IMG/VR virus record: IMGVR_UViG_3300027718_000006
Location: 71 to 64,070 of that record
Origin: a virus
Lineage: Duplodnaviria > Caudoviricetes
Length of the DNA: 64,000 nt
Direction: 5' to 3' (one strand)
How positions within the stretch are numbered: the first letter of the stretch is position 1; every line of letters begins with the position of its first letter. The notes below the pieces were generated by a model. The model saw nothing but the letters and a program-made list of their open reading frames with translations, did not search any database and had not been told where the DNA came from. Positions 13,639-48,070 of the stretch are shown piece by piece. Position numbers and translations under genes: made by a program.

Positions 13639-13642
13639 TAAG

Positions 13643-13672
13643 AAGAAGACCTACATGGTCTTCTTTTTTTTT
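13643..13672 (+). terminator. Intrinsic terminator after the tail tube gene
   Basis: aagaagacc-tacat-ggtcttctt followed by a T run. Confidence 0.85.
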
Positions 13673-13688
13673 ATATAGCTTCCTATAT

Positions 13689-13716
13689 GTTACAGTTCGT
13701 TTACAATACTGTAACA
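13689..13716 (-). promoter_or_regulatory. Triple WalR/YycF-type box (TGTWAH-N5-TGTWAH-N5-TGTWAH)
   Basis: The minus strand reads TGTTAC-agtat-TGTAAA-cgaac-TGTAAC, upstream of a YocH-like gene. Confidence 0.6.
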
Positions 13717-13726
13717 TTCCGGGTTT

Positions 13727-13756
13727 TTGCTATTAAGTGTGTTACATTAGTATAGT
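13727..13756 (+). promoter_or_regulatory. Possible sigma-A promoter of the 3D-domain gene
   Basis: TTGCTA-18 nt-TATAGT; the -10 sits in the inverted repeat ttacatta-gtatag-taatgtaa. Confidence 0.4.
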
Positions 13757-13788
13757 AATGTAAAAGACCAGAGAGGGGCAAGACTATT

Positions 13789-14385
13789 ATGAGACTTAAA
13801 AAGATTTTAGTAACAGGGGCGGCTACACTAGGTATTCTTTTCGGAGGAGGCATTGCAGCTTCAGCAGCAGAGAATCAAAGTGTAGTAGATTATTTATATG
13901 TAAAAGGTGAGGACTATAGCTTTGCTCATCGATCACAGCTAGCAGTACAAAATGGTATTGCAGGGTATAAAGGAACTGCCAACCAGAACTTAACTTTACT
14001 AGCTAAATTAAAAGGAACAACAGTTACTGCACCAGTACAGTCAACAACAGCTCCAGCAGCTAAGCCAGCTACAACTACAGAAGCACAACCTAGCGGAAAA
14101 ACAATGACAATGACTGCTACAGCATACACAGCAAATTGCGCTGGGTGTTCAGGAGTTACATACACAGGCATTAATCTGAAAGCTAACCCTAACCAAAAGG
14201 TAATTGCGGTAGACCCTAGAGTTATCCCATTAGGCTCTAAAGTATATGTAGAAGGATACGGAACAGCTATTGCAGGAGATACGGGAGGCGCAATTAAAGG
14301 TAACCGTATTGACGTATTCATTTCAGATCAATCGTCTGCTATGGCATATGGAATCAAAACAGTTAAAGTAACAATCTTAAATTAG
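13789..14385 (+). CDS. Secreted 3D-domain cell-wall protein (YocH-like C-terminus; DUF3597-like N-terminal domain)
   Basis: Signal peptide MRLKKILV...AASA; SVVDYLYVKGEDYSFAHR...YKGTANQN; ATAYT...VIAVDPRVIPLGSKVYVEGYG.AIAGDTGGAIKGNRIDVF. Confidence 0.9.
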   Translation: MRLKKILVTGAATLGILFGGGIAASAAENQSVVDYLYVKGEDYSFAHRSQLAVQNGIAGYKGTANQNLTLLAKLKGTTVTAPVQSTTAPAAKPATTTEAQPSGKTMTMTATAYTANCAGCSGVTYTGINLKANPNQKVIAVDPRVIPLGSKVYVEGYGTAIAGDTGGAIKGNRIDVFISDQSSAMAYGIKTVKVTILN

Positions 14386-14389
14386 TAGA

Positions 14390-14423
14390 GAGGCACCCTT
14401 TATGGGTGTCTTTTGCTATATTA
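14390..14423 (+). terminator. Terminator overlapping a late-type promoter
   Basis: gaggcaccc-tttat-gggtgtctt-tt, then TGCTATATTA at 14414-14423. Confidence 0.65.
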
Positions 14424-14459: not shown

Positions 14460-16274
14460 ATGACAGATATGTTTCGTGATAACGTGTATGGGAACTACCC
14501 GGACCCACATAAAAGGATGGACGAGTTAGAAGATCATATAGATAGTCAACGTAATACAACTGACAGCCTACAGAGAAAAACTAAGTGGGTTGACATTGTA
14601 ACTGACTTCGGAGCAGACCCTACAGGGTTAACGAATAGTACAACCGCTATCAAAACAGCTTTCCAATACGCAAAAAATAATGGAATCAAAAGAGTTGTTG
14701 CACCAGAGGGAACCTTTCTAGTAGATGCAAGTAAGTCTTCAAATTTTACATCGTTCACAATTTTTAACGGAATAACTTTCGAAGGGAGCGGATACAACAC
14801 TGTTTTTAAAGTAAACCCATCTAGTATCAACTCAAACGGATATTGGAAGTTATTTTATTTCGAAAGTAACGTAGTATTAAATAATTTCAGAGTTGATGGA
14901 CAAAAAGATAAAATCAATAGAACGGGATTAACGAGCTTAGACTTTATCCCTATATATCCCTCTACTGAGTATACTACAGGGTATATTGCCGATATGCTCT
15001 GGATACATGATGTTATAGGTGTAAACTTAGAGAGCTTCGGAATCACTACCAGATCGGGAGACTCAAATGTAAAGTTCCGAAACATAAGAGGATGGAACGT
15101 AGAGGGGACTCCTGTTCACGTTTCTGGTGACTACTTAAACAATAAGTTAGTAAAAGACGTTGAAGTTTCGAATTGTGATGTGTACTATAATACTTGGCAA
15201 GGTATTAGTGTATACGGTGGGGAAGATGTAGTATTGAGAAATATCAAATCCTACGGAAACGCTACAAACGGGTTAAACTTTGAATGGTGTAAGGAAGTAA
15301 GGGTCCACGATAGCGCTGCTTATGATAACGGTGCAGGCATTGGTACATTTGGTAAAGCTAATGTAAAAGTTTACGATTCTCAAATATACAACAATGCTAA
15401 ATCTGTTCAAAACGCTGAGATAGCTATAAACGTGGGTTCATGGTATACAGGTAATTTAAAAGGGAATGCAGGAGTCGTTGAATTTCATAATTGCCGTGTT
15501 ACTCCATCTACAGTAGATAAATACCATTTACACATAGATTCTGATGACACAGTAACAGAAGGGATATCTATACCAGATAAGGTAGTAGTTAACTCATTTG
15601 ACGGAAAAGATTGGCGTATAAAAGTAAAAGACTTTGATGGGACAAGTAAATCGAATGTTATTCTACCTTGCGTTCATTTTAATTCTCTACCTACTATCAA
15701 GCCTGTTGTAACAGGGAAGCTTTGGGATTGGGATGCAGGTGGAGGTGTTTCTTCTGTAAACTATACAGGTACTGATAAACTAAACCCTGATGCAGTTACT
15801 TACAGCTCTTCAGCACAATACCAAAATAGGAGAACAAAATATGTAATGAAACCTAACTCATTATATTTAGTGTCTTTTAGGGTTAAACCTTCAGATACTG
15901 GAGCTTGGTCTCTTTTTGCAAATGATCACCAAAATACGCAAGGAGCTTTAAAGACAGTTAGCTTTGGTGGCTCTAAATTAGCTAATAACTGGATTACAGG
16001 ACACATGCTAGTTAAAACTCCTTCCTTCTATCAGTGGAGATTACAAATGCAATGTAACTCAGCTGTAGCTAGTTCGATTGTTGTAGATTATATTACTGTC
16101 ACTGAGATTACGTCAACAGGGCAGAGTGACATGACTTTAGAGGGGACATGGGATAGGGAGCATCTTGTATTAGGTACTTATCGTATATGGGTTGACAGTA
16201 CAGGTAAACTCAGAATTAAAAATGGTGCTCCTACATCCGATACAGACGGAACAGTGATAGGAACGCAAACTTAA
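14460..16274 (+). CDS. Pectate-lyase-like right-handed beta-helix protein (putative depolymerase/tailspike)
   Basis: VDIVTDFGADPTGLTNSTTAIKTAF...VVAPEGTFLV N-cap, N-ladder repeats (YNTWQGISVYG, GNATNGLNFE), C-terminal HLVLGTYRIWVDSTGKLRIKNGAPTSDTDG motif. Confidence 0.8.
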   Translation: MTDMFRDNVYGNYPDPHKRMDELEDHIDSQRNTTDSLQRKTKWVDIVTDFGADPTGLTNSTTAIKTAFQYAKNNGIKRVVAPEGTFLVDASKSSNFTSFTIFNGITFEGSGYNTVFKVNPSSINSNGYWKLFYFESNVVLNNFRVDGQKDKINRTGLTSLDFIPIYPSTEYTTGYIADMLWIHDVIGVNLESFGITTRSGDSNVKFRNIRGWNVEGTPVHVSGDYLNNKLVKDVEVSNCDVYYNTWQGISVYGGEDVVLRNIKSYGNATNGLNFEWCKEVRVHDSAAYDNGAGIGTFGKANVKVYDSQIYNNAKSVQNAEIAINVGSWYTGNLKGNAGVVEFHNCRVTPSTVDKYHLHIDSDDTVTEGISIPDKVVVNSFDGKDWRIKVKDFDGTSKSNVILPCVHFNSLPTIKPVVTGKLWDWDAGGGVSSVNYTGTDKLNPDAVTYSSSAQYQNRRTKYVMKPNSLYLVSFRVKPSDTGAWSLFANDHQNTQGALKTVSFGGSKLANNWITGHMLVKTPSFYQWRLQMQCNSAVASSIVVDYITVTEITSTGQSDMTLEGTWDREHLVLGTYRIWVDSTGKLRIKNGAPTSDTDGTVIGTQT

Positions 16275-46297: not shown

Positions 46298-48070
46298 ATG
46301 AAAATTAATATTGGGACGATGTTTACCAAAGTTGATTTTGAAGGAAATACGCTTCTCAGAGAGAAGATTCAAGATATGGCTCATCATGCATTAGGCGTTA
46401 AAGAAGAAGGTGCTTTTTATTCAAGAGCATATAAATCTGGCTTTTGGGATGGGATTACAGATTTCTATGACATGAAAGAAGACAAGTTCCATACAGGATT
46501 ACTTGATCAGTTTCTAGAAGGACTAAGACAGCTTATGGAAAAGGATAAATCATTTACATACGAACTCGTAGACGAAAGACCTTCCCCACCTGTTCATCAT
46601 GATGCTATTGACGAAAAGATTGTACTAGGTAACGGAGATGAGGAACCTATTACATTACGTGATTATCAATATGAATCTGTCAAAAGTGTATTTGAACAAC
46701 AGGTAGGGATTGTAAACGTAGCAACAAACGGAGGTAAAACAGAAATAGCTTCTGGAGTCATTCAACAAATCCTACCATACATAAAACGTGGAGAGCGTAT
46801 TGCATTCTTTACTCACTCTCGAGAAATTTTTGGACAATCTGCTGAACGTATTGCCAAGCGTGTAGGATTAAAAGTACGTGACGTTGGATTTGTCGGAGAC
46901 GGTAAATTCGATATTAAAAATAAAAAGATTGTATTCGTTATGGTGCCTACACTGGTATCTGCACTGAAAGACCCGAAGAAGGGAATTAAGTTCACACCTA
47001 ACGAAACAGTTATCAAGCTAATTGCTGAAGAGATTACACCGAAGTTTAGAAATACGGTAAATACTCGTAAGCTCATTCAGAATTATTTGAAGAATCGAAC
47101 TTGGAAGACAAAAGCAGAGTTATCCGCTGAAGAGCAATTAATGTATGTGGCTTATGATAAAAAGTTCACTGACAAATCTGCTCAGATGCATTTGAATAAA
47201 TACGTAGTGGAATTTAACAAGATCATGGAGAAGAAGAACAAAAAGAAATTCCAAAAGTACAAAGAGACGAAGGAGTTTATGGACTCTATCAAAGTGATGA
47301 TTGCCGATGAGGTTCACCATTCTAAAGCGGATACATGGTATACGTCTCTATCCATGTGTGAGAATGCTATTTACCGTGTAGGTTTAACAGGTACTGTAGA
47401 CAAAAAGGACAAGATGGGATGGCAACGACTACAAGCTATCTTTAGTCAAGTTACAGTTAAAGTATCGAACGAATATCTGATCGATAAAGGTGTATCGTCT
47501 AAACCGACTATTCGACTGGTACCTGTTCAGGAGCCACGTAATTTAGAATTAGCCAGCAATTTCATGGAAGCGTACAAAGCTGGAATCGTAGAAAACGAGT
47601 ATCGTAACAAGTTGATTACAGATTTAGTAGAGTCATATCGTAAGCGTAGACCGGGTGGAGTACTTGTCAGTGTGAAAGAGATCGCACACGGAGAAGCTAT
47701 CCTAGAGATGATACGAGCTAGAGGCTTAGAGGCGGAATTTATTAATGGTGGCTCCGATGCAGACCACCGTGCTACACAGCTGCATCGATTCTCTACAAGT
47801 GAATTGCCGATCTTAATTGCATCTACAATTGTTGATGAAGGAGTAGACATGAAGTCAATTGGCTGTATGGTATTGGGTGCAGGTGGAAAATCAATGCGTC
47901 AACAGCTACAGCGTATTGGTCGTGGACTCCGACTAAACGGAATCGATGGGAACAGCGTTATGGTATTCGATTTTTGGGACGCTACGAACAAATATCTACT
48001 TAACCACTCAAAGGAACGACTGAAGATTTTCCGCTCCGAAAACTTCGATGTAAAAGTTTTAGGAAAATGA
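46298..48070 (+). CDS. SF2 (DExH) DNA helicase; probable start ATG 46298
   Basis: LRDYQ, ATNGGKT (Walker A), IADEVHH, GLTGT, QQLQRIGRGLR. Confidence 0.92.
   Translation: MKINIGTMFTKVDFEGNTLLREKIQDMAHHALGVKEEGAFYSRAYKSGFWDGITDFYDMKEDKFHTGLLDQFLEGLRQLMEKDKSFTYELVDERPSPPVHHDAIDEKIVLGNGDEEPITLRDYQYESVKSVFEQQVGIVNVATNGGKTEIASGVIQQILPYIKRGERIAFFTHSREIFGQSAERIAKRVGLKVRDVGFVGDGKFDIKNKKIVFVMVPTLVSALKDPKKGIKFTPNETVIKLIAEEITPKFRNTVNTRKLIQNYLKNRTWKTKAELSAEEQLMYVAYDKKFTDKSAQMHLNKYVVEFNKIMEKKNKKKFQKYKETKEFMDSIKVMIADEVHHSKADTWYTSLSMCENAIYRVGLTGTVDKKDKMGWQRLQAIFSQVTVKVSNEYLIDKGVSSKPTIRLVPVQEPRNLELASNFMEAYKAGIVENEYRNKLITDLVESYRKRRPGGVLVSVKEIAHGEAILEMIRARGLEAEFINGGSDADHRATQLHRFSTSELPILIASTIVDEGVDMKSIGCMVLGAGGKSMRQQLQRIGRGLRLNGIDGNSVMVFDFWDATNKYLLNHSKERLKIFRSENFDVKVLGK

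Follow-up and report, generated by a model that had tools for sequence, protein, structure and literature searches.

WalR (YycF) is an essential response regulator, and, of the host's two-component systems, only WalKR is essential. WalR directly binds and activates yocH (PMC4478028), the closest host homologue of the phage gene described here, and in naming yocH as a known WalR target the sequence-only reading that preceded this analysis agreed with the literature. ChIP-seq in Staphylococcus aureus has shown that the outcome of WalR binding is decided by the position of the site, sites upstream of the -35 element leading to activation, and not by its orientation (PMC10746227); footprinted VicR sites are found on both strands (PMC4168254). 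The B. subtilis yocH gene encodes a secreted, wall-bound protein with a 3D catalytic domain that is 60% identical to the one encoded by the phage, and its promoter, like that of the phage gene, has TGTWAH direct repeats in an 11-bp phase, an extended -10 element (TGTG-T-TACGAT, compared with TGTG-T-TACATT in the phage) and a poor -35. The two promoters nevertheless differ in layout: yocH has a distal pair of hexamers on the coding strand at about -72 to -56 and an imperfect pair over the -35, whereas the three boxes of the phage gene occupy the template strand from -66 to -39. The proteins differ as well, in that YocH carries two LysM modules where the phage protein has a DUF3597-like module.

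A second set of host promoters bears a close resemblance to the phage locus. The PhoP-activated B. subtilis promoters of pstS, tuaA and phoA/B share with it the same-strand hexamers with an ACA core, the 11-bp phase, the lack of a -35 and a near-equal register, but they contain four boxes with an invariant TT start, whereas the phage boxes number three and start with D, and the fourth slot is not conserved.

Two phage systems are also relevant. A close parallel in function is the Tgl protein of Kayvirus, a strictly lytic Staphylococcus phage of the Herelleviridae. Tgl is a lytic transglycosylase with a signal peptide, as is the predicted enzyme studied here; it is homologous to the host autolysins IsaA and SceD of the WalKR regulon, its transcription by the host RNA polymerase requires no phage proteins, and it serves as an auxiliary lysin that needs a holin-type de-energisation of the membrane for lysis (PMC7150955). 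Tgl differs from our enzyme in having an IsaA/SceD-like rather than a 3D fold, in belonging to the lysis module and not the tail module, and in that no WalR boxes have been reported for it. In the genome of phage K we found no tandem TGTWAH site and only a chance-level number of perfect pairs, one of which, near 44.9 kb, lies within a coding sequence; a search with PF06737 did not locate tgl in this genome.

The other system is that of the cyanophage genes controlled by host PhoBR (P-SSM2 pstS and several genes of S-PM2d), in which boxes for a host response regulator precede selected genes of a lytic phage and their expression is set by a two-component system of the host (PMC10976474). That case differs from ours in the regulator (PhoB), in the signal (phosphate), in the functions of the genes (nutrient acquisition and DNA metabolism) and in its support by EMSA and transcriptome data, whereas the present case rests on sequence analysis. 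The same study found that predicted response-regulator boxes in phage genomes can fail an experimental test (PMC10976474). Our literature search for WalR together with Bacillus phage genes found no publication linking the two, and a search for Herelleviridae together with the 3D domain returned nothing relevant. For WalR and Bacillus phages, these searches agree with the sequence-only reading, which knew of no such arrangement in a lytic phage, but the general principle has a precedent in the cyanophage genes under host PhoBR (PMC10976474).

The 3D-domain cassette and its promoter

The window, i.e. the whole stretch of DNA analysed here, is a 64-kb fragment of a contig from an uncultured phage of the Herelleviridae (Bastillevirinae), in which all 55 of the 55 long ORFs lie on the plus strand. 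The genes for the tail sheath and the tail tube are followed by a terminator, an intergenic stretch of ∼ 120 nt, the ORF for a 198-aa 3D-domain protein and a second terminator (Table 1). The two terminators that flank the 3D-domain gene make it a stand-alone cassette, and a similar hairpin with a T-run is found 5' of the boxes at every orthologue locus examined. The cassette follows the tail tube gene in the window phage and in BSP18, the tail spike gene in Goe8 and AvesoBmore and, in Moonbeam, other, unrelated genes. With its own promoter, flanking terminators and variable genomic position, it has the properties of a moron-like cassette. Directly downstream of it, at 14460–16274, the window has a gene for a protein of 604 aa with a right-handed, pectate-lyase-like beta-helix, which is probably a tail spike depolymerase; the Goe8 counterpart of this gene precedes the cassette, whose position is therefore not fixed.

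Table 1. Features of the cassette, in positions of the 64-kb window
Feature	Position	Strand	Remarks
Intrinsic terminator, 12-bp stem and T-run	13640..13668	+	Closes the tail-tube transcript; borders the cassette upstream
Three direct-repeat hexamers in 11-bp phase	13689..13716	-	Based on sequence, chance estimate, conservation and fixed register
Weakly conserved stretch at the -35 location	13717..13737	+	Neither a -35 nor a fourth box is conserved here
Extended -10 element TGTG-T-TACATT	13738..13748	+	Hexamer TACATT at 13743–13748; register fixed among promoters
Ribosome-binding site GAGAGGGG	13771..13778	+	10 nt 5' of the ATG; kept in Goe8
3D-domain gene, 198-aa secreted protein	13789..14385	+	Signal peptide; Pfam 3D domain
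Intrinsic terminator	14388..14414	+	Downstream border of the cassette

The plus strand at 13688–13716 reads TGTTACAGTTCGTTTACAATACTGTAACA. Its reverse complement contains the three hexamers TGTTAC (13716–13711), TGTAAA (13705–13700) and TGTAAC (13694–13689), separated by the spacers AGTAT and CGAAC, which amounts to two overlapping perfect matches to TGTWAH-N5-TGTWAH; this triple site had been reported from the letters of the sequence and is exact on the minus strand. On the coding strand, the boxes read GTTACA, TTTACA and GTAACA. The 64 kb contain a single copy of the triple pattern, and none turned up in 100 shuffles that preserved the dinucleotides, so that the chance calculation proposed along with the site places it far above expectation. 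The pair pattern TGTWAH-N5-TGTWAH has three matches in the window, compared with 0.73 expected, and the third of them, at 47604, is the sole perfect pair outside the triple site and falls within a 598-aa ORF. Two additional half-sites had been described around the promoter and both are present on the plus strand (TGTTAC at 13740–13745 and TGTAAA at 13759–13764), but neither counts as a conserved box: the former is the TG-n-TA of the extended -10 and the latter is absent even from the nearest relative, Goe8.

The promoter originally assigned to the gene, TTGCTA-18-TATAGT, matches the consensus at 9 of 12 positions, which is the chance level for this region, and is not conserved; we dropped it in favour of a conserved extended -10 with the sequence TRTG-T-TAYATT. 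Its version in the window, TGTG-T-TACATT, is the extended -10 well known from sigma-A promoters of B. subtilis, including the TRTG '-16' motif. Transcription is predicted to start near 13754–13756. Counting TACATT as -12 to -7, the boxes are located at about -66 to -61, -55 to -50 and -44 to -39, all of them upstream of the -35 position, where there is no conserved element. With box 3 ending at about -39 from the predicted start site, the array lies where WalR sites are associated with activation. Extended -10 promoters are able to work without a -35. The combination of a strong extended -10 with a missing -35 suggests that an activator is needed, and the layout appears to be that of an activator-dependent promoter read by the host polymerase.

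Conservation and gene specificity of the boxes

Fourteen non-redundant orthologue loci, retrieved by protein similarity alone and with protein identities of 53% to 94%, all carry two to four hexamers in 11-bp phase (14/14). The boxes are thus kept upstream of related 3D-domain genes, which had been suggested as a check on the original observation. Box 3 ends exactly 26 nt before the extended -10, without gaps, in all 14 protein-derived loci and in 31 of 31 unique promoters, and this strict distance suggests a contact with RNA polymerase; the stretch between the extended -10 and the ATG, in contrast, can be anything from 36 to 83 nt long. Per column, the information content is 1.58 bit in the boxes, 1.01 bit in the 5-nt spacers and 0.61 bit in the stretch from -38 to -18.

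A pattern consisting of the three cores and the TG-n-TAnnnT element was used to search the 2.9 million viral contigs of IMG/VR. It gave 48 matches, 44 of them directly 5' of a 3D-domain gene, whereas the other four resemble unrelated 11-nt tandem repeats. The orthologue follows 43 of these 44 promoters, and the remaining one, an identical promoter, is truncated by the end of its contig; one of the 44 drives a gene for a 3D protein whose N-terminus is unrelated. The complete genomes of Goe8, Moonbeam, BSP18 and AvesoBmore contain the tandem site once each, at the 3D-domain gene, and isolated box pairs elsewhere in these four genomes are at the control level. Occurring once per genome, the tandem site is no general phage promoter motif.

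Hexamers of the form TGTWAC are about two-fold over-represented in the window (161 versus 82 expected), and nearly all of them are in coding sequence, in one frame per strand. This strong frame bias (GTW-ACA, Val-Thr) indicates a codon-pair bias and not a regulatory signal, and, the tandem site being unique in each genome, we rejected the idea of a genome-wide phage motif.

Conservation of the boxes extends over Bastillevirinae phages that infect B. cereus, B. subtilis, B. pumilus and P. megaterium. The nearest cultured relative, the P. megaterium phage Goe8, is ∼ 80% identical to the window over the gene and ∼ 95% identical over the 110 nt upstream of it. In the phages of the B. cereus group, all three boxes are unambiguous TGTAAH repeats on the template strand that point in the same direction. 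These three same-direction repeats defeat the alternative raised in the sequence-only reading, namely a regulator that would recognize the palindrome TGTTACA...TGTAACA, and with it a site of the TnrA/GlnR type that we also considered; the spacing is unfit, too.

Among the relatives, the number of boxes ranges from two to four while their register is unchanged. The IMG/VR contig 3300012940_000167 has four phased boxes, TTTACA, GTAACA, CTAACA and GTAACA (L011:1300-1500), the phages of the Bp8p/phiAGATE type have only boxes 1 and 2, and Shbh1 has only boxes 2 and 3. The box-2/box-1 pair of Goe8 (NC_048797, 44029–44045, minus strand; L001:3040-3056) is TGTAAAGGAACTGTAAT. In every letter, those of the spacer among them, it equals the distal WalR site of yocH in the B. 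subtilis group (L059:1088-1104), although with respect to the gene it lies on the opposite strand. In many of the phages, the spacer between boxes 2 and 1 ends in AAC.

The regulator predicted to read the boxes

Judged from their sequence, the boxes form a putative array for a response regulator of the OmpR family, most likely WalR. A WalR site comprises at least two TGTWAH direct repeats 5 nt apart, and the phage promoter has three such hexamers. The TGTWAH consensus alone cannot separate WalR from PhoP, since the PhoP boxes of host pstS and tuaA fit it as well when read from the opposite strand. What is a perfect WalR consensus on the minus strand equally reads as a PhoP-box array, TT[A/T/C]ACA, on the coding strand. 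In B. stercoris, B. tequilensis, B. sonorensis and P. megaterium, the promoters of pstS, tuaA and alkaline phosphatase genes all contain perfect TGTWAH-N5-TGTWAH matches in the opposite strand. Under control by PhoP, PhoP~P would bind the coding-strand (D)TTACA repeats and the gene would be turned on under phosphate limitation of the host. The strand and phase of the PhoP boxes do match those of the phage array: pstS (in 33 Bacillaceae), tuaA and an alkaline phosphatase gene carry TT[A/T]ACA on the same strand in 11-bp phase together with a -10 that lacks a -35, boxes 1–3 of pstS are located at about -65, -54 and -43, within 1 bp of the phage boxes at -66, -55 and -44, and the B. cereus-group phages even show TTTACA-N5-TTTACA.

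The degenerate position of the hexamer is more informative. In the 93 boxes of the 31 unique promoters, the first base on the coding strand is A in 21 cases, G in 44, T in 28 and C in none; position 6 on the WalR strand is accordingly C in 44, A in 28, T in 21 and never G, as the H of the consensus demands. Since the retrieval pattern behind most of the 31 promoters had the TTACA cores fixed, the counts are free of bias only for the first base and the flanks. At the same position, the WalR half-sites of host yocH have C in 12 cases, T in 12 and A in 2. By comparison, 127 of the 128 PhoP boxes in 32 Bacillaceae pstS promoters begin with TT (the pstS windows were picked by best match to the PhoP consensus, although the conserved block is obvious nonetheless), whereas a TT start is seen in only 28 of the 93 phage boxes (30%), and Moonbeam, L132 and L137 have no box that begins with T. 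True PhoP arrays, moreover, consist of four boxes that extend to about -25 to -27 and replace the -35, a slot that is not conserved in the phages, and there is no obvious link between a wall enzyme and the supply of phosphate. The base use in the phage boxes, which is complementary to the H of the WalR consensus and resembles that of the yocH sites, tips the balance towards WalR, as does the S. aureus and VicR literature on the position and orientation of sites, and we consider control by PhoP quite unlikely.

Some features of the locus do not fit the familiar picture of WalR promoters. Three half-sites misfit a simple dimer, which we counted against the WalR reading. At host yocH, 22 loci have the perfect pair on the coding strand, only two have it on the other strand and two have it as a palindrome; the ftsA and tagA sites also have the coding-strand orientation, opposite to that of the phage boxes, and only sigI has a template-strand site. 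The phage boxes, being on the template strand, thus share neither orientation nor layout with the host yocH promoter. Because of these differences, the phage site is no copy of that promoter, and the capture of the yocH promoter together with its gene could be ruled out. We found no counterpart of the phage promoter geometry in four Bacillus/Priestia host genomes.

The missing host counterpart and the unusual orientation would suit a different kind of regulator, either a DNA-binding protein encoded by the phage or a host factor that does not belong to the OmpR family, which would recognize the repeats and time the expression of this single gene; the large genomes of Herelleviridae encode many uncharacterized proteins. 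Such a regulator would have to be dedicated to one promoter, given that the site is unique in each genome. None of the phages examined encodes a DNA-binding (winged-helix) domain of the OmpR type, the -10 has the textbook form of an extended -10 for sigma-A, and the 11-bp phase and the degeneracy of the boxes match the WalR consensus position by position, all of which makes this option unlikely. Alternatively, WalR (or PhoP) might act on the boxes negatively or as a modulator, with the extended -10 alone ensuring constitutive early transcription. The ability of extended -10 promoters to do without a -35 would allow for this. The analogous tgl promoter of Kayvirus, too, fires without a known activator (PMC7150955). 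Activation goes along with sites that lie upstream of the -35, and the strict 26-nt distance to the -10 suggests that the bound protein touches the polymerase, so a modulating role is decidedly improbable in our view. Hardly credible is the possibility that the repeats have no regulatory role and have been kept only by the recent common descent of the cassette, which indeed moves as a unit and is ∼ 95% identical upstream of the gene among near relatives: the hexamers and their register have persisted while the proteins diverged to 45–60% identity and the spacers and the -38 to -18 stretch were randomized.

Taken together, we see a somewhat better than even chance that host WalR binds the array and activates the phage 3D-domain gene, which would be read by the host RNA polymerase. 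Since the boxes are conserved in related phages, the phage probably lets a sensor of the host switch the gene on. The proposal of the sequence-only reading that the gene is wired to WalKR is partly supported: the boxes are real, conserved, specific to this gene and degenerate in the manner of WalR sites, but the promoter that it named had to be corrected.

In the mechanism that we envisage, WalR~P, phosphorylated by WalK and possibly by PrkC, would dock at the three TGTWAH hexamers from -66 to -39 and recruit the host sigma-A polymerase, and transcription of the cassette would begin as soon as the genome enters a growing cell. The enzyme would be made from the start of infection, in a dose following the wall-growth signal of the host. 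It would be exported by Sec, bind peptidoglycan and cut glycan strands in the manner of host YocH/YuiC, and its role would most likely be that of an auxiliary, pre-positioned lysin or a wall-loosening factor.

If WalR does control the gene, a subfamily of lytic Bacillus phages, including those of the B. cereus/anthracis group, would couple one wall enzyme to WalKR, and this would be the second, mechanistically distinct case after cyanophage PhoBR in which lytic phages use a host two-component regulator. The WalR regulon would gain a phage member and, with it, a compact natural WalR-dependent promoter of unusual orientation and stoichiometry, and the adjustment of phage lysis functions to the growth state of the host would become directly accessible to study. 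Cultured relatives for testing include Goe8, Moonbeam, BSP38, SBSphiJ and phages of the Bastille type. A bolder and, in our estimate, unlikely version is that the strictly lytic Bastillevirinae built a WalR-responsive promoter independently, reading both WalK (wall growth) and PrkC (muropeptides), and that the enzyme and the muropeptides would also wake or condition dormant neighbours or spores. The cassette would then encode a phage 'resuscitation' factor gated by a host signal, waking neighbours and spores into new hosts.

Arrays of coding-strand TGTWAH hexamers were also seen upstream of a host gene for a Na+/Pi cotransporter-PhoU protein (L175:2016-2043 in P. megaterium and L183:2010-2068 in B. 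stercoris), the array of P. megaterium being a phased triple. Their orientation is opposite to that of PhoP-activated promoters, and they could be PhoP-repressed or WalR-controlled sites.

The encoded protein

The 198-aa protein has a Sec signal peptide (∼ aa 1–27) with an AXA cleavage motif, followed by a small DUF3597-like wall-binding module (aa ∼ 30–75), for which the match to Pfam PF12200 is weak, an Ala/Thr/Pro linker and a C-terminal 3D domain (aa ∼ 108–198) of the MltA/YuiC-like lytic transglycosylase type. The 3D domain is recognized by PF06725 with an E-value of 3e-21 and a score of 75.8 bits (cut-off, 23.8), its three Asp residues are invariant in the alignment, and the structures of YuiC (PDB 4WJT/4WLI/4WLK) are matched with an E-value of 9e-13; the protein thus belongs to the YocH-YuiC family. 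Together with the signal peptide, this bears out the description of the gene product, made from the letters alone, as a secreted 3D-domain wall protein. Over its C-terminal 125 aa, it shares 60% identity with YocH of the B. subtilis group, and aa 32–76 are 56% identical to a segment of endolysins of the Listeria phage A511 type. The protein contains no LysM module and so does not have the YocH architecture of two LysM modules and a 3D domain. Its full-length relatives all come from phages, and the bacterial relatives share only the 3D domain, with LysM modules in place of the N-terminal module.

In RefSeq, the orthologues (for example L001:3130-3735 and L020:1201-1797) are widely labelled 'L-alanyl-D-glutamate peptidase', 'portal protein' or 'peptidase'. 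Pfam detects the 3D domain only, and no peptidase domain, so that these labels appear to be propagated errors.

The 3D genes of SPO1-type and Exiguobacterium phages were tried as comparators and set aside, as they lie inside operons and are not comparable. A different viral gene, found in three IMG/VR contigs (L016-L018; ORF start at 1321), encodes a LysM + 3D protein with the true YocH architecture. About 100 nt upstream of it, L016 and L017 carry TGTAAT-AAAAC-TGTAAT on the coding strand, and L018 has the same pair with one mismatch; in L016 and L017, these boxes have the host-type orientation, unlike those of the Bastillevirinae cassette.
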